A stretch of DNA of 59,299 nucleotides from Firmicutes bacterium UBA3576. GTDB taxonomy: Bacteria; Bacillota; Sulfobacillia; UBA3569. Below are positions 224-48,902 of the stretch, piece by piece. The notes beneath the pieces were generated by a model that did not search any database, was not told where the DNA came from, and saw only the letters and a list, made by a program, of their open reading frames with translations. The stretch spans positions 1 through 59,299 of the forward strand of contig DFND01000096.1 of the NCBI GenBank assembly GCA_002375895.1, written 5' to 3'. Position 1 is the first letter of the stretch; each line of letters begins with the position of its first letter. Both the position numbers and the translations under genes were made by a program.

Positions 224-989
224 GTTTGTGACCCAGCTATAGGGGATTGAAACTCTTCCCTCCTCTCTTTCAAGATAGACATTCAAGGTTTGTGACCCAG
301 CTATAGGGGATTGAAACTACCCCTCACCCGAACACCGAGGGCAGGTGCACTCGGGGTTTGTGACCCAGCTATAGGGGATTGAAACTGGTGCCGAGCAGGT
401 ATTCTACCGTGAGGCGAGGGCTGATCGTTTGTGACCCAGCTATAGGGGATTGAAACAAGAGAAACAAAAGAGAAGAGAGGATTCTCAACAACTCAGTTTG
501 TGACCCAGCTATAGGGGATTGAAACCGGGCCCAGCTCAGGGCTGCCGGCGAGCGCGAGCTCGTTTGTGACCCAGCTATAGGGGATTGAAACTGCCGAGTT
601 CGGAAGCTCGCTCTGCCTCTTGACTGGTTTGTGACCCAGCTATAGGGGATTGAAACCCTCCTCCTCTCCAAAGACTTTCACGCGGATTGAAACCGCGTTT
701 GTGACCCAGCTATAGGGGATTGAAACCTGTTCCCGGATCTGCATACCGACCGACGGCCAAGTTTGTGACCCAGCTATAGGGGATTGAAACCCGTTAGGAA
801 TAGAATGGTAGGCCAATTTGTATTGGTTTGTGACCCAGCTATAGGGGATTGAAACTGCAAGACAGAGGCGGGGCCATTGGCGATGGTGATGTTTGTGACC
901 CAGCTATAGGGGATTGAAACTGTTAGTGACGGTACGCCGGAACATCTGGCCGATCCGCCGTTTGTGACCCAGCTATAGGGGATTGAAAC
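224..989 (+). CRISPR. CRISPR array: 12 identical 30-bp repeats GTTTGTGACCCAGCTATAGGGGATTGAAAC, 11 spacers of 34-41 bp
   Basis: Repeats start at 224, 288, 356, 427, 496, 562, 627, 697, 761, 826, 891 and 960. The 3' ATTGAAAC handle is typical of Cas6-processed type I-B/III repeats and gives the + orientation. A pyrimidine-rich leader-like stretch lies at about 160-223. Confidence 0.99.
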
Positions 990-1246
990 GCCGGCGCTGG
1001 CGCCATGTTCGGTCATCTTCCGCACTGAGAAATGACAGCCCATTTCATCTACCTGCATCTTGCAACCCCAACTTCCCGACTCCCGAGGTACGAACTACCT
1101 TACTCGCCAATCATTGCCTACTATTGAAACCCTGCAACTAGTGGAATACAACAGGGGCCCCACCATGAACACAGCCCGCCCCCGGGGTAACAAAGGCTAT
1201 TCAGCAATGGCATGGTAGGCTAGGATTAGCGCGTAACCTTACAGGC

Positions 1247-1271
1247 AGGAGATGTCAACCACTTGGTGAAT
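1247..1271 (+). promoter_or_regulatory. Possible sigma-H-type promoter upstream of the Crp/Fnr gene
   Basis: AGGA-N17-GAAT; short-motif match only. Confidence 0.3.
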
Positions 1272-1462
1272 TTATGGCACCAAGGTTTTCAAAGACAGGG
1301 AAAGCCCAGGGGGCGGTAAAGGGAGCCAAAACCCCTTTGGATCTCTGCGTATAGCAATCTGGAGATCGCCGCCTCGCTCCAATTACAGACTGCTCTGTCG
1401 TTACAGTCAGGGAACGATGTGGGAAGTTAAGATTCGGAGACTGAATGTAGGGAGTGGAAAGG

Positions 1463-2134
1463 GTGACTGATAACTGGCGGCGCTTGGACTTCTTCGCAGG
1501 GCTCGACCCGGCAGAGCTGGATGTGTTTGAGCAGAAGGTCCTGCTGCGACGATATAGGGCCCGTCAGATAATCTTTCTCGAAGGCGAACCGGGCAACCTG
1601 GTCGGGTTCCTGTTGTCGGGAAAAGTTAGGTTGTACCGCATGTCGGAGGAAGGACGGGAGAAGACCATCCACATCCTAAAGCCCGGCGACATTCTGGGTG
1701 AAAGTGCCTACCTCGACGGGGGCGACCATCCCGTGACGGCGGAGAGCCTTGAGGAAAGCCATCTGGCCCTGTTCCGTCACTCTGATTTCAGACAGCTGCT
1801 CAACGAGCATCCCCATCTGGCGCTACATATCGTAGAGAAGATGAACATTAGGTTACGCCAGGCCTACAGACAGATCAGAAACTTGGCCCTGAAGGATACC
1901 TACGCCCGGACCACCAGCAGGCTTTTCAAATTGGCCCGCGACCACGGTGTGTCCACCGACAGCGGGATCCTGTTGAATCTCTCCCTGACACAGTCGGACC
2001 TGGCCAATATGGTCGGAACTTCACGGGAGACAGTGAGCAGAATTTTGAATGACCTACAACGCAAGGGCATTATCGAAATGAAGCGTTCCAAGATCACCAT
2101 CTTAGACCCCGAGAGGTTGCGGCGGTATACCTAA
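1463..2134 (+). CDS. Crp/Fnr family transcriptional regulator
   Basis: cNMP-binding domain (IFLEGEPG...GDILGE) and C-terminal HTH (LTQSDLANMVGTSRETVSRIL). GTG at 1463 has better SD spacing than 1454. Confidence 0.93.
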   Translation: MTDNWRRLDFFAGLDPAELDVFEQKVLLRRYRARQIIFLEGEPGNLVGFLLSGKVRLYRMSEEGREKTIHILKPGDILGESAYLDGGDHPVTAESLEESHLALFRHSDFRQLLNEHPHLALHIVEKMNIRLRQAYRQIRNLALKDTYARTTSRLFKLARDHGVSTDSGILLNLSLTQSDLANMVGTSRETVSRILNDLQRKGIIEMKRSKITILDPERLRRYT

Positions 2135-2213
2135 TCCCACTCCACCGTGCACAGCCGTGGGTTTGGGGCCAACAACGGCTGCCTCGGTGGTTTAAGAAGA
2201 GGGCCTTAAAGGA

Positions 2214-2894
2214 TCACCCTTCACCGTCAGCATGAACGGTGGATTGCCCGTGCCTCTTAGCGAGCTCTCCTAGTACCTCTCTCAGCGTTGTCCCAGAGTA
2301 CACCAGATAGGCCAGCAGGTGGTACACTAGATCGGCCGCCTCCTCCACAACCCGTCTCCTTCGCTCATCGGAGGGATCTGCCTCCAGGTCCTTTCCTGCG
2401 AGGGCAACCTCCGTCGCCTCCTCCACGATCTTCCTCACCAGGGCATCGGTTCCCCTTCGATACAGAGAGGCCGTGTAAGAGCCCATGGGCATGTCCCGCA
2501 GCCGCTCCCGGAGCACTTGCTCCAGGGTCAGCAGGAGATCTCCGCTGCGTGGGCCGGGCTTCCCCGCCAACCGACGGTGAAAGCAGCTCCTCTCCCCCGT
2601 ATGGCAAGCTCCCTTCCCGAGGGGCTTGGCCAGGTAGAGCAGGGCATCCCGGTCACAGTCGGTGAACACCTGCAGGACCTCGAGCAGGTCGCCGGAAGTT
2701 GCACCCTTCAACCACAGCTCGTCCCTGCTACGGCTGTAAAACCAGGCCCATCCCTCCTCGATGGTCCGGCTCAGGGCCTCCTCATCCGCGTAGGCGAGCA
2801 TGAGGACCTCACCTGTATCCACATCCTGAACCACTACCGGGACGAGACCACGGGAGAAATCCGGCCAACGTGACTCTACCTCAATCAGGCTCAA
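2214..2894 (-). CDS. hisI: Bifunctional phosphoribosyl-AMP cyclohydrolase / phosphoribosyl-ATP pyrophosphatase (HisIE)
   Basis: Motifs [32 protein letters not shown], then KIVEEATE and EEAADLVYH. Confidence 0.96.
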
Positions 2895-3648
2895 TTCTCA
2901 CCGGCACCCCCTCGCGGGCTAGCTCCGCCTTAACCTCCGAGATGCGAAGCTGTCTGTAGTGGAAGACCGAGGCGGCCAAGGGGGCATCGGCGCCGGCGTC
3001 GCGCAGGACCTCCACGAAGTGCCGCGGCTCACCCGCCCCTCCCGAGGCTATCACCGGAATGCTCACCGCAGCCACAACGGCCCTGGTAAGGGCCACAGCA
3101 TAACCCTCCCTGCGGCCGTCCTCGTCCATGCTGGTCAGGAGGATCTCGCCGGCCCCGAGCTCCTGTACGCGCCGTGCCCACTCAACTGCATCTAGGTCCG
3201 TAGGTTTCGAACCCCCATGGGTCCACACCCGCCACCGACCAGGGCCGTCCGCCCTGGCGTCGATGGCAACCACCACGCACTGACTGCCGAAGCGCAGCGC
3301 GGCCCGTGTGATGAGGGCAGGGTCCCGTACAGCCGCGCTGTTTATAGACACCTTGTCGGCGCCAGCGGCCAGGATATCACCGATCTGTCCCTCATCGGAG
3401 ATACCGCCTCCCACCGTGAGCGGGATGAAAACGCGGTCGGCAGTCCTCCTCACAGTCTCCAGAAGGGTACGTCTGCCCTCCTTAGAGGCCGATATATCCA
3501 GGTACACGAGCTCGTCAGCCCCCTCCCTGTCGTAAAAGGCGGCCTGTTCGGCAGGGTCGCCCGCATCTCTCAGGGACTGGAACTGGACTCCCTTGACGAC
3601 CCGTCCGTCCTTAACATCGAGACAAGGTATTATCCGCCTCGTCAGCAT
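2881..3648 (-). CDS. hisF: Imidazole glycerol phosphate synthase cyclase subunit
   Basis: [46 protein letters not shown]. Confidence 0.98.
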
Positions 3649-4372
3649 CGCTCTCCCCCTCTACCGCTCTCATCGCCTCCTCCAGCGTCACCCTCCCGGT
3701 GTACAGGGCCTTGCCCAGGATGACGCCGGCTATGCCGGACACCTCCTCTGCGATGGAGCGGACATCGTCGACTGACGCGATGCCCCCGGCGACCATCACC
3801 CCTAGACTCGGGCAGTTCTCCACAACTCCCTGCAAGAAGGCCAGATCGGGCCCCTGCAGAGTACCGTCGCGGCTCACATCGGTGAGAAGGATGTCCTCGA
3901 TCTCGAGGTCCTGGAGTAGCCGCACTGCCCCCGTCACACCCAGGCCCGAAGCTGCGGTCCATCCGCGAATCATGACCCGGCCCGCCAAGATGTCCAGGCT
4001 CCCGATGATCCTTCCGGGGTAATCCCTCACGAACTGCGGCGGGCCATCTCCCGAGAACAGGGCGGAGCCCATTATGACATAATCGACTCCGGCTTCCAGC
4101 GCCCGGGCCAGCGACGCCTCTCCCCTGACCCCACCGCCGTACTGAACCTTAGCTCCAGTGGCCTCTTTTATCCTGGCCACGACGTCCAGGTTACAAGGCT
4201 CTCCACAGAAGGCCCCATCCAGGTCGACTATATGCAGACGGCGGGCGCCCTGTCTGCACCAGTTCACCGCCGCCTCGACCGGGTCAGCGTATACACTAGC
4301 CCTGTCAGCGCGACCGCGAACCAGCCGCACACACCGTCCGTCCTTGATGTCCACAGCCGGGATGACCATCAT
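3611..4372 (-). CDS. hisA: ProFAR isomerase
   Basis: [43 protein letters not shown]. Confidence 0.97.
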
Positions 4373-4983
4373 CAGGCCGCCACCTCCCGGGCGTAGGCCA
4401 ACAGACGCCCCAGGACGGCCAGGCCCGCCCTGCCGCTCTTCTCGGGATGAAACTGCACCCCGAAGATCGAACCCCGCCGCACCGCTGCGGGAAAGGTCAG
4501 GCCGTAGGTCACCCGGGCCAGCACCTCGCCTTCCTCGGGGGCGTGGTAGGAATGGGCGAAGTACAGGTAGCAGGGCTCTCCAGCCGGGAAAAGGGGTGAA
4601 GGGCCCGTCGGCTCAACCAGGTTCCAACCCATATGGGGCACCTTAACCGTCCCCGGCAGTCGCCTCACCCTGCCGGGGAGGAACCCGAGGCCCCTCTCCC
4701 GCCCCCCCTCCTCGCTCCCTTCGTACAGAATCTGCATGCCCAGGCAGATACCCAGGACGGCCTTCCCCGCCTCTCTTGCCGCCTCGATGACCGGTAGTAG
4801 GCCCCGCCGGCGCAGATGGGCCATGGCGTCATCGAAGGCCCCGACGCCCGGCAGGACCAGAATCTCAGCCCTGGTGAGCCGAGCGGGATCAGAGGTAACC
4901 TCCGCCCGATAGCCTAGGAGCCTCAGGGCGTTGTACACACTTCTCACATTGCCGAGGCCGTAATCGACCACGCAGACCAGCAT
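4372..4983 (-). CDS. hisH: Imidazole glycerol phosphate synthase glutaminase subunit
   Basis: VDYGLGNVRSV, LGICLGMQ (catalytic Cys), VPHMGWN, QFHPEKSG. Confidence 0.98.
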   Translation of the reverse strand: MLVCVVDYGLGNVRSVYNALRLLGYRAEVTSDPARLTRAEILVLPGVGAFDDAMAHLRRRGLLPVIEAAREAGKAVLGICLGMQILYEGSEEGGRERGLGFLPGRVRRLPGTVKVPHMGWNLVEPTGPSPLFPAGEPCYLYFAHSYHAPEEGEVLARVTYGLTFPAAVRRGSIFGVQFHPEKSGRAGLAVLGRLLAYAREVAA

Positions 4984-5565
4984 CTAGAGCACACCCTTCG
5001 TAGAGGGAAGGGCCCGACCGTCCGCCCTCGCCGCATCCCTCAGCGCGACGCCGAGCGCCTTGAAACTGGCCTCCGCCACGTGGTGGACGTCCCTGCCGCG
5101 GAGCTCCTCGAGGTGGATGTTCATCGCTGCCTTCCAGGCAACGGCCCTCATGAACTCCGGTACCAGGGCCAGTGGAAAGCCGCCGGCGGTCCCCTTGCTG
5201 GTGAACCGACAGTCAACGTAGGGCCTGCCGCCGAAGTCGACGGCGACCAGGACGAGGGCGTCGTCCATGGGAACGTGGGCGGAGGCGAACCTGCGGATAC
5301 CTCTGGCCTCTCCAAGGGCCCTCCTCAGAGCTTCCCCGAGACATATCCCCACATCCTCCACCGTGTGATGCAGGTCCACGTGTAGATCCCCGACCGCCCT
5401 GACCACGAGGTCCATACTACCATGGCAGGCCAGGGCCTCAAGGAGATGGTCGAAGAAACCTATCCCGGTGGAGATATCGCCCCGCCCCTCGCCGTCAAGA
5501 CAGAGCCTGACCCTGACTTCCGTCTCCCGTGTCCTTCGCTCTACCACAGCTGTCCTTATCGCCAA
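4984..5565 (-). CDS. hisB: Imidazoleglycerol-phosphate dehydratase
   Basis: RETEV, TGIGFFDH, DLHHTVED, HHVAEASFKA and C-terminal PSTKGVL. Exact start uncertain (TTG 5565). Confidence 0.96.
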   Translation of the reverse strand: MAIRTAVVERRTRETEVRVRLCLDGEGRGDISTGIGFFDHLLEALACHGSMDLVVRAVGDLHVDLHHTVEDVGICLGEALRRALGEARGIRRFASAHVPMDDALVLVAVDFGGRPYVDCRFTSKGTAGGFPLALVPEFMRAVAWKAAMNIHLEELRGRDVHHVAEASFKALGVALRDAARADGRALPSTKGVL

Positions 5566-6550
5566 CCCCTCCCAATATCTCCCCTAGGGTCTTCAGGAAG
5601 AGGGCGTTTTCCTCCGGGGTCCCCACGCTGACCCGCAGGTACTTCCGCAGCACCTGATGCCCCGGGTATCTCCTGATGAGGACTCCCTTATCCCTGAGGG
5701 CCCGCCAGAGCAGGTCTGGATCGCATGCCAACGGCCTGAACAGAATGAAATTGGTCTCTGACGGATAGGCTTCGATCCCGTCTATCGCCTGAAGTCCGCG
5801 GTACAGGTCCTGCCGCCAGGCTCGGATGCGCCGGGCCATGGACTCTACCAGGGGTAGGTTCTCCAGCATGAAGAGACCCGCAGCCTGGGCCAAACAGCCG
5901 ACGTTGTAAGGCTGGCGTACCCTCTCCAGCCGCCGGACGAGCTCCTCCGGCGCCAGCACATAACCGAGACGCACCCCCGCCAGCCCGAAGGCCTTGGACA
6001 TCGTGCGGCCGATCATCAGCCTCTCCTCCGAGGCCAGGAACCTGCTCATCCCAGCGTCAAGGGAGAATTCGATGTAGGCCTCGTCCACGAAGACGACGGC
6101 ACCCGAGCGCAGGCACTCTAAGACCAACTGCGGCGGGTAGAGGTTGCCTGTGGGGTTGTTGGGCCTGCAGATGAACACCAAGTCGGGACGCGCGGCGATG
6201 ACCTCTCCGGGCTCGAAGAGGAAGTCTCCGTCCAACTGAACCGTGAACACCTCAGCCCCCAGCGACCGGGCCGCGTCCTCGTACATCTCAAAGGTCGGCC
6301 CCACCACAGCGACCCTGCCCCCCAGAGCAAAGGCGTGACAGGCCATGAAGATCACCTCGTCGCCGCCGTTTCCCACGAGCACCTGGCGGATGTCAACCCC
6401 GGCGTAACGGGCCAGGGCCCGTCTCAGCTCCCACGCCTCACCGTCGGGATACCGCGAGAGCTCCGTACTCGCCAGCCGTTCAGTTAACCCCTCCCGGGCC
6501 TCTTTCGGCAGGGGGATGGGGTTCTCGTTGGCATCGAGCTTGAGTCTCAC
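5495..6550 (-). CDS. hisC: Histidinol-phosphate aminotransferase
   Basis: LDANENP, RYPD, VGNGGDE, PNNPTG, VDEAY, RTMSKAFGLAGVRLGY. Real start is GTG 6550 (SD GGAGGAGG, GTGA overlap with the hisD stop); the ORF-track extension to 6979 is spurious. Confidence 0.95.
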   Translation of the reverse strand: MRLKLDANENPIPLPKEAREGLTERLASTELSRYPDGEAWELRRALARYAGVDIRQVLVGNGGDEVIFMACHAFALGGRVAVVGPTFEMYEDAARSLGAEVFTVQLDGDFLFEPGEVIAARPDLVFICRPNNPTGNLYPPQLVLECLRSGAVVFVDEAYIEFSLDAGMSRFLASEERLMIGRTMSKAFGLAGVRLGYVLAPEELVRRLERVRQPYNVGCLAQAAGLFMLENLPLVESMARRIRAWRQDLYRGLQAIDGIEAYPSETNFILFRPLACDPDLLWRALRDKGVLIRRYPGHQVLRKYLRVSVGTPEENALFLKTLGEILGGVGDKDSCGRAKDTGDGSQGQALS

Positions 6551-7836
6551 CTTGATTCCTCCTCCCGAGCCTGGAGAGCCGCCCCGTGGGCCAGAAGGCC
6601 CTCGGCCTGGGCCAACTCCCGAGCCGTTGGAGACAGCTCCCGGAAGGCCTCCCTGGTACAGTACATGACGTTGCTGGCCACCAGGAAATCGCGCACACCC
6701 AGAGGTGAGGAGAAGCGCGCGGTCCGGCCGGTGGGCAGGACGTGGTTGGGGCCGGCCGCGTAATCGGCGAGGGCCGCGGGGGAGTAGGGCCCCAGGAATA
6801 TGCTGCCGGCGTGTTTGATGTAGGGCAGTAACCTCCAGGGGTCTTCCACCATCAGCTGTAGGTGTTCGGGCGCCAGGTAGTTGACGACCCGGGCTGCTGC
6901 CGCGAGGTCGGGAACCACCACGGCCACCGCGTCCTGGAGGGCGGAGCTGGCCACCTCGCCCCGGGGGAGAGCCCGACATTGCTCCTCGATCTCCTGCCGG
7001 ACCTATCCCGGGATTTCCTCCTCCGTTGTGACCAGGAAGATGCCGGCCTCGGCATCGTGCTCAGCCTGCGCCAGCAGGTCGGCGGCTATCAGGCCCGGAT
7101 CGGCGCCCCCGTCGGCCACCACCGCCACCTCACTGGGGCCGGCCAGCATATCTATACCTACCACGCCGTAGACCTGCCGCTTCGCCTCCGTGACCCAGGT
7201 GTTGCCCGGGCCGACGATCTTGTCCACCCTCTTCACGGTGGAGGTGCCGTAGGCGGCCGCGGCCACGGCCTGCACCCCGCCCAGGGCGTACACCTCCAGC
7301 CGCCCCAGCACGTGGGCTGCGGCCAGCAGGTGGAGATCGGGCCGTCCCGACGGGCCCGGCGGCGTGAACACGGCGATGCGCCCGACGCCTGCAACCCTGG
7401 CCGGGATGGCGGTCATGAGCAAGGACGAGGGATAGGCAGCCGCTCCCCCCGGCACGTAGAGGCCCACGCTCTCCAGGGGCCTATACACCTGGCCGGTCAC
7501 CAAGCCGCTGGCCCCGACCGACCACCACGACGACTCCCTCTGGCGGGAGTGGAACTGCTCAATGCGCTCGGCGGCGCGTCTTACGGCCTCGAGGAAGGCC
7601 GGTGAAACCCTCGCCGCCGCCTCTTCCATCTCCTCAGGTCCAACCCCGATGTCAGCGGCCCGCCTGAAGCTAACACCATCGAACATCCTGGTATATTCCA
7701 ACAGAGCCTCATCACCGCGCCGGCGTACGTCACGGATGATGGCCTCGACCCTCTCCCGGCGCACATGCCGCCTATCACCTCGCTCCAAGAGCTCCTCAAG
7801 GCGCCCCTCCCAATCCCCGGTGATCAGCCGCAACAT
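6547..7836 (-). CDS. hisD: Histidinol dehydrogenase, 429 codons, with an in-frame TAG at codon 278 (7003-7005)
   Basis: ATG 7836 with [31 protein letters not shown] and DLLAQAEH precede the [30 protein letters not shown] and FSSPLGV follow it in the same frame. Could instead be a pseudogene. Confidence 0.93.
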
Positions 7837-8477
7837 CTGTCTCCCCCCTTCATCGCCTCCCTGAGCCCCTCGACCAGGCGCCGGATGGCACCGCCCTTGA
7901 GCCTCAGGCTCGCGGGGTTGGCGATGAGGCGCCCGCTGACCCAACCGAGCTCGGCGATAACCTCCAGCCCATTGGCTCGCAGCGTACTGCCCGTGGATAC
8001 GAGGTCGAGCACGACGTCGGCCAACCCCACGAGGGGTGCCAGCTCCGCGTTGCCGTGGAGCTTAATTACCCTGGCCTCCAAACCCATCTCCCCTAGCGCC
8101 TGTTCGGCAATGCAGGGGTACTTGCTGGCCACGTTCAGGGTAGGACACCTCTACCACTCCCCATCCGGATAGCGGCCGGCGGGGGCCGCGAGCACGATCC
8201 TGCACGGAGTTAAGCCGAGGTCGAGAAGCTCGTAGACCTCGCCTCCCTGCTCCATGAGGACGTCCTTGCCCACCACGCCCACGTCCACGGCTCCGGCCTC
8301 CACATAGGTGGGCACGTCGAAGGACCGCATGATGACGAACCTGTAGTCGGGTAGGTCGTAGATGAGCTTGCGGGTTTCTCCCGACAGCCCCTGTACCGGC
8401 AGTCCCGCCGAGGCCATTAGCTCCACCGCCGACGAAAAGAGCTTCCCCTTGGCAAGGCCGATGCTGACCTTCTCCAC
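7824..8477 (-). CDS. hisG: ATP phosphoribosyltransferase, short form, 217 codons, with an in-frame TAG at codon 109 (8151-8153)
   Basis: IGLAKGK, DVPTYVE and DVGVVGKDVL precede the TAG. VASKYP, LHGNAELAP and DLVSTGSTLRANGL follow it in the same frame. Could instead be a pseudogene. Confidence 0.93.
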
Positions 8478-8500: not shown

Positions 8501-9796
8501 TCAGTGAATGCTCTGGAGGCGGCAGGGACGCGGCGTCGGCGGTGAATCCTGTGCTTTGGCCGCGACATCGCCTCGTGCCCTGACCTCAGCCAGGAGATCC
8601 GCGGCGTTCTGCGCGTTGACCCTGACGACCTCCCTGGCCGGCGGGCCGCCCTCTCCCTCCTGTACGCATACGGAGAACCCGCACCGCCGGAGCTCCCGGC
8701 CGAGCGCCCAGGCCTCCTTCATTAGCCCCTCCTCCGGGATCACCAAGTAGTCGAGAAGGTGCGCTGGACGGTCCTCGCGAAGGGCCACGGCCGCCATTTC
8801 GTCGAGGTTCAGGGCGAAGCCGGTGGCCGGCCGGACAAGGTCGAAGCCGGCCAGCAGGCCGTTATAGCGACCACCACCACCTATGAGGAGCCCCGTCCCC
8901 GACGCGTAAATCTCGAACACCGGGCCGGTATAGTAATCGAGGTCGCGCACGAGGCCCAGGTCCACCGTCACCTTGTCAAGGCCCGAGTGCACCTCCACGA
9001 GCTCCACAACCGTCTCCAGGTCGCCGAGGGCTCTCTGGGATACCTCTCCCAATAGGCCGCAGAGTTCGGCCGGCAAGACGGGGCCCTCCCGCGGGGGCGG
9101 CCAGGCGTAGGAGCCTGTGAGAAGGGCCTCAAGCGCAGCCGCATGGTCGGGGGCGAGCCTCAGCCGGCCCGATTCCCGCAGGGACACCAGATGTCTCCGG
9201 ATGCCCGCCAGGTCCCGGGCCTGCAGCAGTTTCAGCAAGCAGCTACGGTCATCCGGCAGAAGCCCTGCGTCCTGTAGCAACGCCTCCAGCAGCCCCGCAT
9301 GGCCCAGGGCCAACCGGAAATCGTTAAGACCCACCGACGCGAGGCAGTCCAGGGCCATGCAAATTACCTCTGCGTCCCCGTGAGGTCCGGCCTGCCCGAT
9401 AAGTTCAGCTCCCATCTGGAAGGTCTCGTTATTGCGGGAATCGTTCCTGTCGTAATACCTGAAGATGCTTCCCGCGTAGAACAGCCGGAGCGGCATCGAC
9501 TCCAGGGCCAATTTAGTCGCAGCCAGGCGGGCCACCGGGCCCGTCATGTCGGGCCGCAGGGTAAGGACCTCGCCGCTCCGGTCCACGAACCGGTAGGTCC
9601 GCCTCGATCCACTACCTGCTGACACCACGCAGCAGTCGAATTCCAGGGTGGGGGTTACGACCTCACGGTATCCCCAGCGACGCATGACGTCCGCGATGGT
9701 TTCCTGCGCCCGCCTGCGCCAAGTAGCCTCCTCAGGCATGATGTCCCGGCAGCCCTCGGGAAGCCGGATCAACCGCCCGTTTGTACTGTCCTCCAC
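8501..9796 (-). CDS. hisZ: ATP phosphoribosyltransferase regulatory subunit
   Basis: HisRS-like: PEGCRD, TPTLE, LRPDMTGPVAR, QMGAELIG, DLDYYTG, GGGRY; first gene of a his operon with short HisG. Confidence 0.95.
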   Translation of the reverse strand: MEDSTNGRLIRLPEGCRDIMPEEATWRRRAQETIADVMRRWGYREVVTPTLEFDCCVVSAGSGSRRTYRFVDRSGEVLTLRPDMTGPVARLAATKLALESMPLRLFYAGSIFRYYDRNDSRNNETFQMGAELIGQAGPHGDAEVICMALDCLASVGLNDFRLALGHAGLLEALLQDAGLLPDDRSCLLKLLQARDLAGIRRHLVSLRESGRLRLAPDHAAALEALLTGSYAWPPPREGPVLPAELCGLLGEVSQRALGDLETVVELVEVHSGLDKVTVDLGLVRDLDYYTGPVFEIYASGTGLLIGGGGRYNGLLAGFDLVRPATGFALNLDEMAAVALREDRPAHLLDYLVIPEEGLMKEAWALGRELRRCGFSVCVQEGEGGPPAREVVRVNAQNAADLLAEVRARGDVAAKAQDSPPTPRPCRLQSIH

Positions 9797-10089: not shown

Positions 10090-10971
10090 TCACTTTTTGT
10101 CTTTGGCAGCTCGTTGCCCAATACGAGAAGCGTTTATCCGTCGCCATATACCGTACTCCTCTAACGATAGATTGAGTTTCTGGGTCACTACGCTCCCTGG
10201 GGCAAAGCAGACACCACTATACTCCACGTGCTGGCCAGCATAGCGATGGCGCGGGTTATATGACTGCCACTCCCGCCCGATGAGCGGTTCCACTTCACCC
10301 TTCGCGGGCAGGTTCCTGGCCACAGCGTGGGCCAGCAAATGTTCTCCGCACGGCACACAGATATATACCTGCTTGCCACTGCAGTCGAACTTCACTTTCC
10401 CGTCAAACAACTGGTCACCTTTAACTTCCCGAGTTTCGATCAATCTCACGTCGCCCCAGCCGTAACTGCGCTCTCCGCCAAACTGCACCCTCGTGAGCGC
10501 CTCCTGCCAGGCTAGTTCACTGCCGTCGCGCTCAAATATGTAGCCGACCAGAAAAACCGGCTCACCTGTATCCATGGTATAGGGCGATATGAACTCGACT
10601 TCGCGAAGCATCCCTATGGCCGCAGAGTGACTGAAACCAGATAGGGCTATCCCTTGGTAGCTGCCGAGAAAACGGAACAGATTCTCTTTCTTCCACGGCC
10701 AGGCAATGTCATAACCGCCCTTTCCCTGCGTACATGGGTATAAGTAAGTAAAGGCCAAACTCTGGTGAACCTGTTTACCAATGGCTTTGTACCTACGGGA
10801 ATCAGTGGCCGGAGCACCCTGCACCGCATCCCGGGTTAGACGCATGGTCAATGCACCCCATACTGCGCGGCCGGTCACGTAAGGACGAGTAGTCTGGAGA
10901 TTCCCCACCTTGCCCCAACCTATATGCATAGGAGAACGCAGGCGAAATATAACCCGGTAAATACGCCACAT
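10090..10971 (-). CDS. cmr3: Type III-C Cas5-family RAMP (Cmr3-like)
   Basis: RAMP N-terminus LRSPMHIG, G-rich loop GGERSYGWG, last position in the cmr operon. Confidence 0.75.
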   Translation of the reverse strand: MWRIYRVIFRLRSPMHIGWGKVGNLQTTRPYVTGRAVWGALTMRLTRDAVQGAPATDSRRYKAIGKQVHQSLAFTYLYPCTQGKGGYDIAWPWKKENLFRFLGSYQGIALSGFSHSAAIGMLREVEFISPYTMDTGEPVFLVGYIFERDGSELAWQEALTRVQFGGERSYGWGDVRLIETREVKGDQLFDGKVKFDCSGKQVYICVPCGEHLLAHAVARNLPAKGEVEPLIGREWQSYNPRHRYAGQHVEYSGVCFAPGSVVTQKLNLSLEEYGIWRRINASRIGQRAAKDKK

Positions 10972-10977
10972 AAAATC

Positions 10978-11436
10978 TTACCTCCTAAACGCCTTAGCCC
11001 CGTAACGGGCATAAATCAGCATCTGTGCCAGCGTCTCTTTCGCCAATAGTAGACGGTCGAGCCTGACCGTGACCTTTTCGGTGATGTGCTTCAAGACCAC
11101 GTCGGTATTTGTATCCACATTGCCATGTTCGTCCGTCGGTTTGCCCCAGCCAAAACCTAGCCTATCCAGCAATTTGAGCATCTCCTCCACGACCACCTCG
11201 CCGTTTTCCTTTTCCTTCGCCATAAGATAGAGAAAACAGGCGTAAACGCCGTTTTCCTGTAGAACGCCCAGTGCTTTGGTCACGGTGTTATCCGCACTGC
11301 TAGCAGCCTTCTTCTTTTCTTCGTTATCTTCTCTTTTCTTGCCGTCCTTGTCTTCCATAACCAGACGGCAAATGATATTCTGTGCGTGTTCAGCAGCCAA
11401 CCGGTCCAGATTAAGTTGTGCCACGCTGTTCTTCAC
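10978..11436 (-). CDS. cmr5: Type III small subunit Cmr5 (Cas11)
   Basis: 152-aa helical protein, NLDRLAA and KALGVLQENGVYACFLYL, between cmr4 and cmr3. Confidence 0.85.
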   Translation of the reverse strand: MKNSVAQLNLDRLAAEHAQNIICRLVMEDKDGKKREDNEEKKKAASSADNTVTKALGVLQENGVYACFLYLMAKEKENGEVVVEEMLKLLDRLGFGWGKPTDEHGNVDTNTDVVLKHITEKVTVRLDRLLLAKETLAQMLIYARYGAKAFRR

Positions 11437-11441
11437 TAGCG

Positions 11442-12419
11442 CTAAACCTCCTCACCATGAGCCCAGGGGGCACCGACAAGAGCCATGCGACCGAATCCGC
11501 GAGTGCCCATGCCGCCGACGCCCAGCCACTTGATCATGTTTAGGCCGGCACCTAGCACATCCAATGGTCCTTTCCAAGGTGCAGGTAGAGGATTTCCTTC
11601 GGCAGTATGGTTTTTCGGAAATACCGTCGCCTTCTCTCCGTGCCGATAATCGTCGAACACCACTTCGACGGTCAAGAAGGTTGTACGGGGCAGCGCTTCA
11701 TACGTGAAGAGGGCGCCTTCTTCAGCTGCACCCCGTTCCGGGTCTATGGCCACCGACGTACGCACCTCCAGATTGCTGTTAACCACCTGACTGAAAAGCG
11801 CGGGCTGCAGCAAAGCGATACGGTTTTGCACCTCGCGCCAGCACTCTTCATCTTTCCACGCGTCCGGAGCAGTGACCACCACCTGACCAGCGCTTTCAAC
11901 CATCAGCCAGCCCAGGTTCAGGGCGTCTTTCCGCTCCCAGGTCAGCAGGGCGGCCCCAATATCCCACTCTGAAGGCAAGTCGGTTACGCTGAAACCCGCC
12001 TCTCGCAGTCTATCGACCGTACTCACCCATACTGGCCCATGTATGGAATACACAGGGAACAGCAGCAAGTGGGCATCAAAGACGTTGACCACCCCTGAAT
12101 AGCCCACGGTGTTGTCTTTCCGACCCGCTTCACCCCTGAGGTAGCCGAAGGTATAGCAGATCGGACAATTGTCTTGGCCACAGTGTCCGTCTCGCCCCTC
12201 TCGGTTAGCTCCCTGTCCCGCACACGTAGGGCTTTCATATATTCTGGCAGCGTAGGAGCGGGCCGCACCATGCAGGCTGGTACCGGGGATCTTGGGTATA
12301 CGGGTGCCGGGCTCCCGGACAATGCTCAAATCCACTCGCCCCAGGCGGTAGCCCCCGGTACCGATGTGAACAGGGTCGGTCGTCATCAATAGATAACGTC
12401 GCCTCTCGTAAATCGCCAT
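11442..12419 (-). CDS. cmr4: Type III backbone RAMP Cmr4 (Cas7)
   Basis: DPVHIGTG...VDLSIVRE (Asp at the Cmr4 catalytic position), IPGTSLHG, ALFTYEALP, GVGGMGTRGFG. Confidence 0.92.
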   Translation of the reverse strand: MAIYERRRYLLMTTDPVHIGTGGYRLGRVDLSIVREPGTRIPKIPGTSLHGAARSYAARIYESPTCAGQGANREGRDGHCGQDNCPICYTFGYLRGEAGRKDNTVGYSGVVNVFDAHLLLFPVYSIHGPVWVSTVDRLREAGFSVTDLPSEWDIGAALLTWERKDALNLGWLMVESAGQVVVTAPDAWKDEECWREVQNRIALLQPALFSQVVNSNLEVRTSVAIDPERGAAEEGALFTYEALPRTTFLTVEVVFDDYRHGEKATVFPKNHTAEGNPLPAPWKGPLDVLGAGLNMIKWLGVGGMGTRGFGRMALVGAPWAHGEEV

Positions 12420-12433
12420 GGCCATTTACCTCC

Positions 12434-15271
12434 TTACTCCTTCAAGATCTCCATGTATAACTCAGCCAGGTCGGCCAGTTCGCCGCGAACGCCAGCCTCA
12501 ACAAGTCCCTGCAAATCTGGTTGGCTTGAGGCCCGCCATTCCGCTCCAGCCAGGGTATCGGCCACAAATTGCCGGAATACCGGGTCGTACCGGGACCGGC
12601 CATCAACGTCTTGGCCGTACCATCTTTCACGGGTGGCCTCGATAATGCTGATAACCTGGTGACGCTGGGATACGGTTAGCTGCTTAAACAGACTCCAAAG
12701 GCTATCCAGACGGTCTAGATCCTCTAGGTAGAAGGGACGGGTTCGACGTGGACAGCGGCCATTCGACCCATAGTAGACTTCAAAGCGTCGGCCGGTGGTA
12801 TCCAGGAACTCAAAATCAAATCGACTGGGCTTGACCCAGACTTTCAAATCTACCTGGAGGTCCTTTACGTATTCGGCCTTCTTAGTCTTACATGTGTTAC
12901 CTTCATACATCCTCGGATACCATTCGTCCTCTCGTTCACCGTCGCCGGTTACCACTGGTATGCGCCACGTAATGCCGTTATCAAAGACGAGCTCGCATTC
13001 ACTCCCGTTGTTGTAGTTCTTCTGTACTAACCGCCAATCGTCCCATTTGCATCGGCCGCCCATGTTCAGCATATTCCGCCCGGCTTGTAGTACGGCGCGG
13101 AGCGGCGTGCGGCGATGGCAGAAAACGAGACCCAGGTAGAGGGGCAGCCGGTCACGGACCCGCCCCATCTCTCTTTCGTACTTGCGCTTTACTGCTTGGG
13201 CCAGCTCCAGGGCCTTAGCAGCTGGTACCAACGTCATACATACGCTCGGTTCAGCCAGAAGGGGGATGGCCGGAATATACCCGTCGAGTCTATTCACACG
13301 TTCAAACTTAACTCTCGCTATGACCTGACTTGGCCTCAGGAATTCGGAAGGTTCCAGAATATCGATGGTGCGCCCCTGAAGCTCGTCAACGAGATCATCT
13401 TCGGATACCTGCCAGCGCCTAGCAAAGTAAGTTAGATTCTCTACGGTGAGGAAACGGCCCTTGGACGCATCCCAGACAACGTCTAGAGTAAGGCCGTCTA
13501 TCTTCAGCTCGTAGGCGTGATACTTGCCCAGCTCCAGCGAACTGTCAGGTGCGGGGTAAAGAGCCAGGCGGAACGGCCGCTGGCCAACAACCTCACGCGT
13601 CAAGTCACCGATAACCTGTTGCCAGAAAGAGCGGCCTGTTTCGACAATGCGGTACAGCCTGGCCGGCGAGGGAGCCTTAGTACGCTCGCGGGTTACCCGA
13701 ATGGTAGATACCAGAGAGCCATCCAACCATCCCTCCAAACCCAGTCTACCGACTAATAAAGCCAGCCGACCTTTGTCGTCGGCCACCTCCTCGGTCCATA
13801 TAGTGCCCCGCAAACCCTTCTTCGCCCAATCTTCAGCGCGGCGCCCGCGCCGGTCAAGGCAGACGCGGCAAATGTGACGCCGTTCGGCCTTGTCCTGCCC
13901 AGCCCAGGGGCCCAGTTCCCGCTCCATCTCGGGACTTGTCCCCAGGCGGGGGTAACCGACCGGGTAGACCCCACAGGCACTGCAGCTTTCGGCGTTCTCT
14001 GGACGTGCCTCGCCCCATTCCTTGTCGAAAAGGTAGATGTTGTTATCAGCCCACACTGCAGGTTCCTGCATTGACTGCTTACGTGGTTCAGCCACCAGTT
14101 TCTCCACAGGTGGCGCCTCATCATCAAGCTGTCCCGCCGTAATCGGTTCGCCTACGTTGACCCTCGGCCGTAAATCGGGCGGAAACTGGGCCTGGATCGC
14201 CCGGCGCAGCGCAGCTACTTCTTCCTTGCTATATTCGAGGTCAGGGAAAAGATAGTATTCTCCTGTCTCATCATGGTAAAAGCAGTTGGCCAGGGCATAC
14301 GTCTCCTCCAAAAGGGTTCGGACTTTCTGGAAGGCATCGTCAAGTGCTCGGCGGACTCCCAGCAGATCGGCCACCCTGTGACAGCGCGCGTAGCGGTCGA
14401 GTCTGTCGAAATTGATACGCAGGACGCGGAAACGAATATTTTTAAGACTTTTTGGCCAGCCATGCTTGAAAATCCAGACCGTGGCAGCCTTCACCAGGGT
14501 AGCTGTAATAAAGCTCCAGTCCCACAGCGTAACGTCGTTATACGGTCGGCGGTTATCGGCCAGGCCGCGGCTCATGTCCTTTTTCATCGCTCGCAGCCAT
14601 TGGCGGCGCTGGTCTGAAGTGATGTGTTCAATGTCATTCAGGGGTAAGCTATTAAGTGCATTCGTCAGCTCCCCCATGTCCCCCGTTTCAATTCGTTCCT
14701 CTCGGCCAAAGGGGGTAGCACGAAAGACGTTGCTGTAAGGCTGCTTATGCTTGCTGAGCTCATCTTTTTCATCTTTGTCTTCCCCAACCTTCTTTTCAAT
14801 ATGAGCCACACCGTGGAAATAGCCAACCAGCAAGCCCGGCATCATTCCCTTGCCGAGAACTTCTTGCCACTCTGATGGCGGTTGGTTTTCCGCCAGCCAG
14901 GGTCTGGCAACCAGAGGCATTAACTCGGCGAAATTATATGTCGTACCGCTCCAATCGTTTAGTTGGATCCTCAAGAAAAGAGATGTCAGGTCGGGGCGCT
15001 CTTGAAATGCGGCCGGTTTGTTTCGCGCATCTTTCAGCCACTTCTTAACCGCTTTCCTGACTGTCCCAGATATTGCCGCATGGTTCTTGTAGATATCAAT
15101 CTTACGTGGGTCAACCAAGAGATTATGTACGTATTTTATAGTTGGATCTGGATCCTGACTCTGTAAGAACCGGTCACTCAGTTTGCCCAAGTCATGTATT
15201 ATCGCCAGCGCTTCCAAGAGTAGGATAGTGCGCCGTTGCTCCTTGCTTGGTCGCCAGAAAGAACCGCTCAT
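12434..15271 (-). CDS. cas10: Type III-C large subunit Cas10 (Csx11 family): HD motif, Zn finger, Palm lacking GGDD
   Basis: AIIHDLGK, ADNRRPYNDVTLWD, CSAC...CRVC. AEPSVCMTLVP occupies the usual GGDD position. Operon order cmr1-cmr6-cas10-cmr4-cmr5-cmr3 is that of subtype III-C. Confidence 0.9.
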   Translation of the reverse strand: MSGSFWRPSKEQRRTILLLEALAIIHDLGKLSDRFLQSQDPDPTIKYVHNLLVDPRKIDIYKNHAAISGTVRKAVKKWLKDARNKPAAFQERPDLTSLFLRIQLNDWSGTTYNFAELMPLVARPWLAENQPPSEWQEVLGKGMMPGLLVGYFHGVAHIEKKVGEDKDEKDELSKHKQPYSNVFRATPFGREERIETGDMGELTNALNSLPLNDIEHITSDQRRQWLRAMKKDMSRGLADNRRPYNDVTLWDWSFITATLVKAATVWIFKHGWPKSLKNIRFRVLRINFDRLDRYARCHRVADLLGVRRALDDAFQKVRTLLEETYALANCFYHDETGEYYLFPDLEYSKEEVAALRRAIQAQFPPDLRPRVNVGEPITAGQLDDEAPPVEKLVAEPRKQSMQEPAVWADNNIYLFDKEWGEARPENAESCSACGVYPVGYPRLGTSPEMERELGPWAGQDKAERRHICRVCLDRRGRRAEDWAKKGLRGTIWTEEVADDKGRLALLVGRLGLEGWLDGSLVSTIRVTRERTKAPSPARLYRIVETGRSFWQQVIGDLTREVVGQRPFRLALYPAPDSSLELGKYHAYELKIDGLTLDVVWDASKGRFLTVENLTYFARRWQVSEDDLVDELQGRTIDILEPSEFLRPSQVIARVKFERVNRLDGYIPAIPLLAEPSVCMTLVPAAKALELAQAVKRKYEREMGRVRDRLPLYLGLVFCHRRTPLRAVLQAGRNMLNMGGRCKWDDWRLVQKNYNNGSECELVFDNGITWRIPVVTGDGEREDEWYPRMYEGNTCKTKKAEYVKDLQVDLKVWVKPSRFDFEFLDTTGRRFEVYYGSNGRCPRRTRPFYLEDLDRLDSLWSLFKQLTVSQRHQVISIIEATRERWYGQDVDGRSRYDPVFRQFVADTLAGAEWRASSQPDLQGLVEAGVRGELADLAELYMEILKE

Positions 15272-16617
15272 GCTTCACCTCCATTCCTCAACTGGTCTGC
15301 CACGCGCTGCGCCAGTTCTCGCATCTCACTTAAGGTTGTGAATTTCAGCTCTGATATCGGTGGCGTCTCTATAGGAGACGGCGTAGTACCCGACTCCTTC
15401 GGGCCGGCTTCCCACAATTGCCGTCCCTCCCGTTCCCACCAACGTTGCGCCTTTTCGTAGAGCTGTCTGTATTTCTTGCTATATCTCTGCTTCCGCGCCT
15501 CAACTAAGGCCCGATATTCCGTTTCGGACTTGAGGGACCCATCCGGTCGGCGCAAGTCAGCGCGTAGCCGGTCTGGCGTCTCCAGATATCGGGGCAAATC
15601 GTTCGCGCGTTGCGGAGGTTCTGAAACGGCAACAGTCTTACCCTTATCCTCATGTAGTTCTGCCCTCAACACTAATACTCCCTGCCCGTCTAACTGATCA
15701 TCAGCAGTGCCAAACCCGCTGCTAGTCTTGGCCCCAAAACCATAGGTGGTAAGCATGGCCCGGACGCCCTCAGCCAATACCTCCAGGTCCTGGGCCACTT
15801 CAAGGCGCTGCTCCTGTTCACCTTGACCCGCCGACCCAAAGGGGACGTAGAGAAGTATGAGCGTACCGGTGGTGTTCTGAGGTACGCACTCCATCAGAAT
15901 CGGCCCTCTTTCCCCCACGCCGCTTTCACGACTGTGTGGGTTAATAACCTCAATCCCGATTCGATCAAAAAAGGTGGGATAAAAGTGCAACCGGCCGGCC
16001 CGACCTTCCTCGCTTTCGCGCGGATTCCCCAGCAGGCGAATGATCACGGGGTGGTCTTCTTTGTAACCTAACTGCCAAAAGGCCGCCCGCAGAGCCCCCT
16101 TCCAACCTGATGCCGCAACCATAGGCACGTTGAAGATCTTCTCCTTGCGAAGAGGGTTATCGAGAAGGTAAAAGTCACAATCATCTTTGCTTATGTACGG
16201 CTTTTCAAGTCTGAAGGGAATCTTAAGGGCAAAAGCAAGCGGTGGCATGTAAGTGAACGCCTGGTCTTTGACATGAGGAACAAATCCAAAAGCATCTGGA
16301 ATCCTCCCTATGCTATCAGGTAACCGCCTGCACCAGAAATCGCGGATTCTATTTGCAGCATCAGAAGCACGTCGCGACAGCGGCTTATTACCTGCCCGTT
16401 TGGCTTGCTCTCTCAAAGCCCAAAACCACAGGTAGGCTAGGTGTGGCTGAAGGTGCACTGCTTTTCCTGCTGCCTTTTTCAACTCGGTTTCAGCTCGTCT
16501 TTTTTTGCGTTCGTCTCGTGCTCTTCCTGCTCTTTCCAAGTCATCAAGAGCTTGCTCGAGATCACTCAAAGTGCTATCTAATCTTAACTGCTGTAAAGCA
16601 TGATAATCACGTTCCAT
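15268..16617 (-). CDS. cmr6: Type III RAMP Cmr6
   Basis: KPYISKDD, VPMVAASGWKGALR, EVINPHSR, GFGAKTSSGFG. Start taken at ATG 16617. Confidence 0.85.
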   Translation of the reverse strand: MERDYHALQQLRLDSTLSDLEQALDDLERAGRARDERKKRRAETELKKAAGKAVHLQPHLAYLWFWALREQAKRAGNKPLSRRASDAANRIRDFWCRRLPDSIGRIPDAFGFVPHVKDQAFTYMPPLAFALKIPFRLEKPYISKDDCDFYLLDNPLRKEKIFNVPMVAASGWKGALRAAFWQLGYKEDHPVIIRLLGNPRESEEGRAGRLHFYPTFFDRIGIEVINPHSRESGVGERGPILMECVPQNTTGTLILLYVPFGSAGQGEQEQRLEVAQDLEVLAEGVRAMLTTYGFGAKTSSGFGTADDQLDGQGVLVLRAELHEDKGKTVAVSEPPQRANDLPRYLETPDRLRADLRRPDGSLKSETEYRALVEARKQRYSKKYRQLYEKAQRWWEREGRQLWEAGPKESGTTPSPIETPPISELKFTTLSEMRELAQRVADQLRNGGEA

Positions 16618-17668
16618 AACGTTTCTCCTCCAACCGCAAGAGACTGCGAAGAAATTCACGGAAATCGCCATTATTAGGCGTCTCAGTATCTCTGGGTGAA
16701 TTCATCTCGCGCCAAACCTCCAGGGAATATCTCGTCCTCAGATGCTCATGAATCGCACCTACGACTGAATCTCGGTCCCAGAAACCTTGATAAACTTCCG
16801 CCTGTTCTGGGATCCAGCCCCACACGCGCATCAGCCGATTGCCATAGGGGCGTGACATTTTGACTTTAGCGGCCATCCGCTGACCTTTAGTCGTGCCCAT
16901 GATAAAATGCCGCAAAGACGTGTTTTGCTGTCCGGAAAAGAGCTGGCGAAGATCGTACTTGAGGTTGAAGGTCTCCTGCATCTTCACGTTTTCGAGTCGG
17001 ATGCGGGCCAGGAAAATGTTGCGCAACGAGGGCATCCTGGTATAAGTACGAGTTCCGGCGTTAGCAGTCAGCCAGTCGTAAAGGGGTGCGGTGTCGAGAC
17101 GGCCGCCTGGCAGCTCAAAAACACCAAATCCCATCTGCGCCCGCGCACCTATGGTCACCCAATCGGCCATGAACTGGAGTAAACCACCAATGATTGCTGG
17201 TTGGAACTCTAGCTTAGCACCTGTTTCCAACCCTTTGGGCGTTGTGGATTGAATTCGAATGGTCAAACTTCCAGAGCGAGGCTTGTCTTTCAGATTCTCA
17301 GGGAAATACCATGTTGGCGTGCGCTTGCGCCCCCTGCGGTCAACATACGAGCGGTCGGCCTTCACCAGTGGCTTAACAGTGGGGTCGGGCTCGGTACGAT
17401 CGCAAATGATACTGATGCGGAAACGCCTACGCCAGCCGGTAGCTCCAAAAACCTTACAAACGTCGCAAAGCCCGTGGTTGCGCTTGCTAGGGTCATACAA
17501 GCACTTCTGCATTGTCGGATCACATACTTTGCCCCCTAGCCCACGCAGAATAGCTTCGTACCACCAGCGCAGGCTGCCGATAATCGCCGTCTCATGAACC
17601 CGATCGACCGCGCCGCTCTCTGCACCGCCCGTCCAAAGAGGAGTCAAGGTTCTAATTTCAACTTCCAT
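16607..17668 (-). CDS. cmr1: Type III RAMP Cmr1
   Basis: RTLTPLWTGG, IIGSLRWWYEAILRG, FGATGWRRRF, GARAQMGFG. ATG 17668 has optimal SD spacing. Confidence 0.88.
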   Translation of the reverse strand: MEVEIRTLTPLWTGGAESGAVDRVHETAIIGSLRWWYEAILRGLGGKVCDPTMQKCLYDPSKRNHGLCDVCKVFGATGWRRRFRISIICDRTEPDPTVKPLVKADRSYVDRRGRKRTPTWYFPENLKDKPRSGSLTIRIQSTTPKGLETGAKLEFQPAIIGGLLQFMADWVTIGARAQMGFGVFELPGGRLDTAPLYDWLTANAGTRTYTRMPSLRNIFLARIRLENVKMQETFNLKYDLRQLFSGQQNTSLRHFIMGTTKGQRMAAKVKMSRPYGNRLMRVWGWIPEQAEVYQGFWDRDSVVGAIHEHLRTRYSLEVWREMNSPRDTETPNNGDFREFLRSLLRLEEKRYGT

Positions 17669-20213: not shown

Positions 20214-20309
20214 GGCAGAGTAGGTGTTCCTGCGTTAAGTGCCGGAGGATGGGATGTTGCCTCCGGACGAAGGGCCTCGAGCCCGCGGTAGGGCACCGCA
20301 TCCGCTGCC
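20214..20309 (+). ncRNA. Tetrahydrofolate (THF) riboswitch
   Basis: Conserved blocks GCAGAGTAG, TGCGTTAAGTG, GGATGGGATGTTGCC, ACGAA, GCGGT and CACCGCATCCGCTGC, directly upstream of folT. Confidence 0.93.
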
Positions 20310-48241: not shown

Positions 48242-48902
48242 GGATGAGGCCTCCGGAAGCTCGACATAGATACACGACGCAGTCCAACCCAGAATCCTCC
48301 TGCACAGTGACTTCGGCATGCGCGGGGAACACTCCTGCCAGGAGGTTTCGAAAGCGGGCGGACGGCGCGTGGGACCACAGGGTGAACAGTCCGCCCGGGG
48401 CCACGGCGTCCCTTATTAGCCTGAGGCCGTGGGGGGTGTAGAGCCGGGCGTTCGCCCCCCACACCGTCCATTCCGGCCCGTTGTCGACGTCCAGGGCCAC
48501 GAGATCGTACTGGGCGGGGGGGCTCTGGATGAACTCCAGGAAGTCGGCGCAGAAGACCCGTACCCGGTCGGACTCCAGGGCCCGCCCGTTCAAGCCCGCC
48601 AGGACCCCCCTGTTCCACTCGATTACGGCGGGCTCGATCTCCACCACGTCCACGAGCGCCTGGTATCGCAGCGCGGCCCTCACGGTTAACCCGAGCCCCA
48701 GGCCGCCTATGAGGAACCTGTAGGGGCCCGGGGTCCCGAGGTGCGGCACGGCCAGGTCCACCAAGGCGGCCTCACCCCGGCCGTTGGCCTCCGAGGACAT
48801 CAGGAACTGCCCGTTCATGATGATCTCAAAACAATCGCCCCGCCGGCAGAGGACCACCTCGCCGCGGGGCGTGTGCCTTCGCTCCACGACCTCTCGCATC
48901 AA
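48045..48902 (-). CDS. Spermidine-synthase-like SAM-dependent methyltransferase
   Basis: FEIIMNGQFLM, LIGGLGLG, VVEIE, ALDVDNGP. C-terminal ~65 aa overlap acuA and are low complexity. Confidence 0.8.
   Translation of the reverse strand: MMREVVERRHTPRGEVVLCRRGDCFEIIMNGQFLMSSEANGRGEAALVDLAVPHLGTPGPYRFLIGGLGLGLTVRAALRYQALVDVVEIEPAVIEWNRGVLAGLNGRALESDRVRVFCADFLEFIQSPPAQYDLVALDVDNGPEWTVWGANARLYTPHGLRLIRDAVAPGGLFTLWSHAPSARFRNLLAGVFPAHAEVTVQEDSGLDCVVYLCRASGGLIHEGSEGPEGPPHPQGRPDGRGADPARGDAPPGPGRGAHELQAPQAAARRPHDRRGDAAGEGGGRP

Follow-up and report, generated by a model that had tools for sequence, protein, structure and literature searches.

The histidine biosynthesis operon of Firmicutes bacterium UBA3576 contains two in-frame TAG codons, one in hisD and one in hisG. 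These are probably recent nonsense mutations which have made pseudogenes of both genes, pointing to an emerging histidine auxotrophy. Both stops were present in several assemblies, and TAG normally served as a terminator in the genome. Machinery for decoding TAG was not found in the assembly, and a scan for internal stops returned no other convincing internal TAG. The phenomenon is of an already known kind.

The operon is encoded on the minus strand of the window, the window being the whole stretch of DNA that was analysed (59,299 bp). The gene order was hisZ-hisG-hisD-hisC-hisB-hisH-hisA-hisF-hisIE. The seven genes other than hisG and hisD were intact and no frameshift was found anywhere in the operon. 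hisZ, encoding a HisRS-like regulatory subunit, was located at 8501..9796 (-), with PF13393 present in an identical gene. hisC, encoding histidinol-phosphate aminotransferase, was located at 5495..6550 (-) based on translation and on the annotation of an identical gene. hisB, hisH, hisA, hisF and hisIE were located within 2214..5565 (-) and were assigned from the Pfam families of identical genes. The 3' end of hisG overlapped the start of hisD by 13 nt and the GTG of hisC overlapped the TGA of hisD (GTGA). The hisC frame was open for approximately 140 codons upstream of its GTG, overlapping hisD at its 3' part in a different frame. A 494 amino acid ORF at 5495-6979 (-) was considered as a gene fusion and rejected as a spurious high-GC artefact. 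One match each to hisD and hisG was returned from the assembly, a MAG estimated as 86% complete, and no second copy of either gene was found in it. Upstream of hisZ, RAMP/type III-like cas genes were present at 10090-17668 (-), with PF03787 found in identical contigs. A CRISPR array with the 30 nt repeat GTTTGTGACCCAGCTATAGGGGATTGAAAC was present at approximately 490-990 of the window. The only Rfam match at gathering level in the window was a tetrahydrofolate (THF) riboswitch (RF01831) at 20214-20309 (+) with a score of 89.6 bits.

hisD, encoding histidinol dehydrogenase, was located at 6547..7836 (-) and comprised 429 codons plus TGA with one TAG inside. The frame ran from ATG at 7836..7834 to TGA at 6549..6547, a total of 430 codons, and the TAG was its sole interruption. 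The earlier note had placed this TAG at 7003-7005, as codon 278 of hisD with the frame kept across 48 nt. This was confirmed by translation and by reading the minus strand, where 7020..6979 is GAG GAA ATC CCG GGA TAG GTC CGG CAG GAG ATC GAG GAG CAA (TAG at 7003..7005, or 7005..7003 as read on the minus strand). In the ORF list the halves of hisD, at 7003..7944 and 6547..6954, were both in one frame. The distance from the TAG to the GTG of the second ORF was 48 nt (16 codons, 7002..6955), and the GTG at 6954 was the first in-frame start.

The HisD read-through product was predicted to be a single Histidinol_dh domain (PF00815, residues 27-424, E 7.7e-157) and it aligned full-length with solved HisD structures (PDB chains, E 4e-110). 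The nearest named sequences were those of Ammonifex and Desulfothermobacter (52-53% identity). All of the columns invariant in 20 class relatives and in 31 database homologues were kept. The portion past the TAG, comprising 151 codons at 6547..7002 (-), carries the APEH motif and other invariant catalytic and metal-ligand columns based on translation and alignments. A322/E324/H325 (APEH), H365, E412 and H417 were conserved and all were downstream of the TAG. Since these residues lie beyond the stop, the 277 amino acid product should be inactive, as the earlier note had claimed. Column 278 itself was variable among homologues, with E, R, A, Q, D or S in the alignment. An AlphaFold2 model of HisD with the TAG read as Q had a mean pLDDT of 91 and a pTM of 0.89. 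In this model residue 278 was in a helix (275-288) directly after a strand (265-270, IFLVTT). The description of the site in the earlier note, a poorly conserved position in the helix following LVT, was thus borne out by both the alignment and the model.

hisG, encoding a short-form ATP phosphoribosyltransferase, was located at 7824..8477 (-) and comprised 217 codons with one TAG inside. The TAG was codon 109, at 8151..8153 (8153..8151 as read on the minus strand), and the surrounding sequence translated as ...PDGEW*RCPTLNVASKYP... The Pfam domain PF01634 spanned the TAG as one domain (residues 51-206, E 2.4e-45). In the homologue alignment codon 109 was in a variable, gap-rich loop column. 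The TAG was upstream of the invariant DxxxxGxTL residues, found within DLVSTGSTL. The premature stops in hisD and hisG therefore both fall inside conserved domains and upstream of essential residues.

A motif resembling a Shine-Dalgarno sequence (GAGGTG) overlapped the hisG TAG. In-frame GTG codons were present 6 codons past the TAG in hisG (GTG 8132) and 16 codons past it in hisD (GTG 6954). Each gene could on this basis be split into two polypeptides, with re-initiation at these codons and non-covalent assembly of the parts. This is very improbable. The spacing of the Shine-Dalgarno motif to the GTG was poor in both genes, at 13 nt for hisG and 0 nt for hisD. The break in hisD would fall inside helix 275-288, and 16 residues would be missing after a restart at GTG 6954. 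Among 39 homologues from relatives, not one was split at the TAG sites.

Both TAGs were also found in three other assemblies. The contig from NCBI assembly GCA_002376455.1 (20,601 bp) was 100% identical over 15,076 bases, the contig from JGI sample 3300032171 (17,052 bp) over 12,629 bases and the contig from JGI sample 3300032172 (59,150 bp) over 15,805 bases. Truncated HisD and HisG products had also been recorded from other assemblies. It is very unlikely that the TAGs arose by random assembly or sequencing error, because the three other assemblies carry both at 100% identity. All four assemblies may come from one source reactor, and their agreement is a measure of reproducibility, not of evolutionary conservation. 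The source of the sequence is a MAG and the assemblies may come from related samples, which would suit a consensus artefact or a majority-allele call masking a functional sense allele that the population also carries. Such an artefact is highly improbable. The four contigs (59,299, 59,150, 20,601 and 17,052 bp, from NCBI and two JGI samples) agreed base for base. It would be implausible for two stop-making errors to strike neighbouring genes of a single pathway and no other site in 2 Mb.

The whole genome was scanned for internal stops with a codon log-odds model. This was trained on long ORFs and scored every stop with open, coding-like sequence on both sides. The TAGs of hisD and hisG were the only convincing internal TAGs in the genome by this codon-score scan. 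Two in-frame TGA selenoprotein candidates were recovered, serving as a positive control. The first, on contig C58 at 17497-17499 (-), encoded AGVG-U-GGPRYGL. It was HesB/IscA-like by eye, with a weak, sub-threshold Pfam match to Fe-S_biosyn (E 0.0057). The second, on contig C77 at 48367-48369 (-), encoded LTPV-U-PICNQ and was GrdB/PrdB-like by eye with no Pfam match. Both are probable selenoproteins. A tRNA-Sec gene was present in the genome on contig C13 at 4847-4947.

Other candidates from the scan were rejected. At C56 402 (DUF1670) and C55 30314 (Gate) the best Pfam match was wholly downstream of the stop. C29 11718, C27 8321, C38 7993 and others were taken as gene junctions based on translation, and some scan candidates were antisense frames. 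Stops followed by the next gene in the same frame comprised 45 TAG compared to 28 TGA and 18 TAA, while overall use was 35, 46 and 19%, respectively. These TAG junctions included dnaG-rpoD, pheT, flgK-flgL, clpP-clpX and atpH-atpA. The excess of TAG was considered as a sign of recoding and rejected, as nearly all were normal gene termini with a start codon after them. It may be caused by overlap with the next Shine-Dalgarno sequence (TAGGAGG-type).

The identity of the two stops was also considered. In the codons of hisD and hisG, 57-65% of the possible single-base nonsense changes give TAG under several transition and GC-to-AT biases. The occurrence of two TAGs is unremarkable because approximately 60% of single-base nonsense changes yield this codon, and the probability of two stops out of two being TAG was p ~0.35.

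The capacity of the genome to decode TAG was examined in the assembly, which consisted of 98 contigs with a total of 1.99 Mb, a GC content of 62.6% and a completeness of 85.7%. PylS was not found in this 86% complete MAG, the best score to the HMM TIGR02367 being 19 bits compared to a cut-off of 178. Searching the genome by tblastn with PylS of class relatives G062 and G030 gave no match at 1e-5. The same was true of pylB, pylC and pylD, for which the queries were three ORFs downstream of G062 PylS assigned by position and size. Thirty-four tRNAs including tRNA-Sec were predicted by ARAGORN at default settings in the 86% complete MAG, and none had a CUA anticodon. As a positive control, ARAGORN detected tRNA-Pyl beside PylS in G062. 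At an 80% threshold a few of 2524 ARAGORN calls were labelled tRNA-Pyl and these were discarded as noise. RF1 (prfA) was present with a score of 543 bits, over the cut-off. TAG terminated 412 of 1177 confident coding ORFs (35%). rplO, atpH, clpP, grpE, rpsU and sdhA ended in TAG with the next gene in the same frame. Efficient TAG suppression would be harmful because TAG ends essential genes in frame with the next gene, and read-through would fuse essential proteins. Genome-wide reassignment of TAG was not seen, as RF1 is kept, TAG is in use as a terminator and convincing internal TAGs are limited to hisD and hisG.

No stable RNA structure was found in the 103 nt past either TAG, where the folds were no better than those of shuffled sequences (z = +1.9 and -0.1). 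A PYLIS-like or other read-through-stimulating structure was rejected on the same grounds. The genome encoded three MttB homologues, none of which had an internal stop. These MttB-superfamily genes were of the non-Pyl type and were located at C20 10505-11980, C26 4-1386 and C66 13252-13830, all without an in-frame TAG. The last is cut by the end of its contig and had sense codons across the Pyl-equivalent position.

PylS was found in 3 of the 151 class genomes sampled, namely G030 (L051, L054), G062 (L050, L053) and G076 (L052). In G062, tRNA-Pyl and PylS were followed by three ORFs whose sizes agreed with those of pylB, pylC and pylD. Among the class relatives, G030 had the most similar HisD and HisG, and on the contig carrying its PylS an MttB-family gene was interrupted by one in-frame stop (TAG). 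The PylS of G030 was identical to that on a marine-sediment metagenome contig, OSAE01000033. At the columns of the two TAGs G030 has the ordinary residues D and N. The column variability and the ordinary residue in this relative were the outcome of the homologue alignment which the earlier note had proposed as a check for hisD.

Pyrrolysine at both TAGs, with pylTSBCD in the unassembled 14% of the genome, would fit the presence of PylS in these relatives, the tRNA-Pyl adjoining it in G062, the interrupted MttB-family gene of G030 and an 86% complete MAG. The rest of the evidence makes this extremely improbable. All four pyl genes and tRNA-Pyl were absent from the assembly and the three MttB homologues had no in-frame TAG. 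G030 has ordinary residues at both columns, and TAG is an abundant terminator. When metagenome contigs were scanned with a PylS alignment, none from the two JGI samples was among the best 80 matches, which is a weak negative. To our knowledge, there is no published instance of pyrrolysine in HisG or HisD. The pyrrolysine-like decoding implied by the earlier note was not supported, given the lack of pylS, pylB, pylC, pylD and a CUA-anticodon tRNA in the assembly, MttB genes without TAG, the presence of RF1 and the use of TAG as a common terminator. The case cautions against inferring pyrrolysine solely from the presence of an in-frame TAG.

A low level of full-length HisG and HisD could also be made by leaky or regulated read-through, in which near-cognate tRNAs, or a non-Pyl suppressor tRNA encoded in the unassembled part, insert a standard residue. 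The variable positions of both TAGs should accept most residues, the remaining operon is fully intact with all invariant residues kept, and with 34 tRNAs assembled a quarter of the tRNAs and 14% of the genome are unassembled. Read-through is nonetheless unlikely. No suppressor tRNA was among the 34 and RF1 was present. No stimulatory structure followed either TAG, 35% of genes end in TAG with many in frame with the next gene, and no other gene uses such a TAG. Two sequential low-efficiency events, together with the loss of translational coupling, would leave very little enzyme. It is very improbable that hisG and hisD are translated through the ambers by a dedicated suppressor system in the unassembled 14%, whether a pyl cluster as in the three relatives or another tRNA-CUA. 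If such a system were present, conditional amber decoding would control the output of a housekeeping biosynthetic pathway, and the operon would be the first example from nature in which amber recoding governs the synthesis of an amino acid. The operon would be relevant to the biology of the genetic code only if read-through were shown.

Some of these observations also count against the favoured interpretation of the TAGs as nonsense mutations. The operon is pristine but for the TAGs, and the inactivation must be very recent or the genes must still be in use. Both TAGs are at variable positions, as would be predicted for a tolerated insertion, and this would occur by accident with p ~0.25. PylS was present in 3 of 151 class relatives and the 86% complete MAG contained just 34 tRNAs.

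If the TAGs are nonsense mutations the events were very recent because there are no other lesions, the branch lengths are normal and the downstream parts are conserved. No further lesions were found in the operon beyond the two TAGs. HisD and HisG were not long-branch outliers, and the parts past the TAGs were as conserved as in relatives. For HisD the mean identity past the TAG was 43%, no lower than the 41% among relatives. Scanning genome contigs with the HisD N-terminus matched relatives at ≤58% identity, and no relative closer than 56% identity was found among 5.8 billion protein clusters. Relatives at this distance leave no basis for dN/dS, and the other assemblies, at 100% identity, carry no divergence that could reflect selection.

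Neither hisG nor hisD was found in 16 of 40 class relatives, nearly all of the 16 being >90% complete. The pathway has therefore been lost repeatedly in the class, as these 16 genomes lack both genes. The earlier note had named decay of hisD in relatives as evidence that would speak against decoding of the TAG, and at the level of the class such loss was seen (hisD and hisG lacking in 16 of 40). A histidine utilisation cluster was present on contig C21 at 238-4737 (+), with urocanase, imidazolonepropionase-like, glutamate formiminotransferase and cyclodeaminase-like genes. Urocanase and glutamate formiminotransferase were confirmed by Pfam, with the imidazolonepropionase-like gene between them. 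The contig begins inside hutU, and hutH was accordingly not seen. The hut genes and the candidate Stickland-type selenoproteins are what would be expected of an organism fermenting amino acids with histidine supplied from outside.

Taken together, a course of events may be suggested. Both TAGs would be genuine nonsense codons in a clonal, uncultured Bacillota-like population and would be read as stops. HisG would stop after 108 residues and HisD after 277 in vivo, and both would lose essential downstream residues. The early stop in hisG would also uncouple the translation of hisD, the start of which overlaps the hisG stop. The organism would have become, or be on the way to becoming, a histidine auxotroph in an anaerobic, protein-rich community from which it would obtain histidine, and this supply would make the loss tolerable. 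With one gene of a linear pathway inactivated, the rest would drift neutrally, and a second stop would be expected in the same operon and purged elsewhere. The his operon would on this account be a very young pseudogene cluster. If this ordinary reading is right, the operon captures a pathway at the outset of its loss, with two point mutations in an otherwise perfect nine-gene operon, and histidine biosynthesis should be scored as non-functional in annotation of the MAG.

Similar phenomena have been described. Pyrrolysine decoding of in-frame UAG, with pylTSBCD, is found in Bacillota and methanogens (PMC3941956, PMC12626013, PMC1976440). The his operon resembles these systems in having a single in-frame TAG in each of two otherwise intact enzyme genes, with TAG still a terminator elsewhere, and members of the class carry PylS. 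It differs in that no pylS, pylB, pylC, pylD or tRNA-Pyl was found here, the genes affected are those of histidine biosynthesis and not methylamine methyltransferases, and the MttB genes have no TAG. Selenocysteine recoding of UGA in the same genome likewise involves a stop codon inside a gene and was detected by the same scan. Unlike the TAGs of hisD and hisG, it uses another codon with a dedicated tRNA present in the assembly.

Amber mutations in hisG and hisD are well known from the classical his-operon genetics of Salmonella and E. coli. As in those mutants, a TAG would truncate HisG and HisD and lead to histidine auxotrophy, and polarity would be expected on coupled downstream genes. The alleles described here are natural, occur two together and are fixed in an uncultured environmental population, unlike laboratory mutants. 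Adaptive or neutral loss of amino-acid biosynthesis also occurs in community-dwelling bacteria as Black Queen-type auxotrophy. The his operon is comparable in that the pathway would be going in an organism able to obtain and even catabolise the product, with the loss recurring among relatives. It differs from other cases of this type in being at the very first stage, with two point mutations and neither deletions nor frameshifts as yet.
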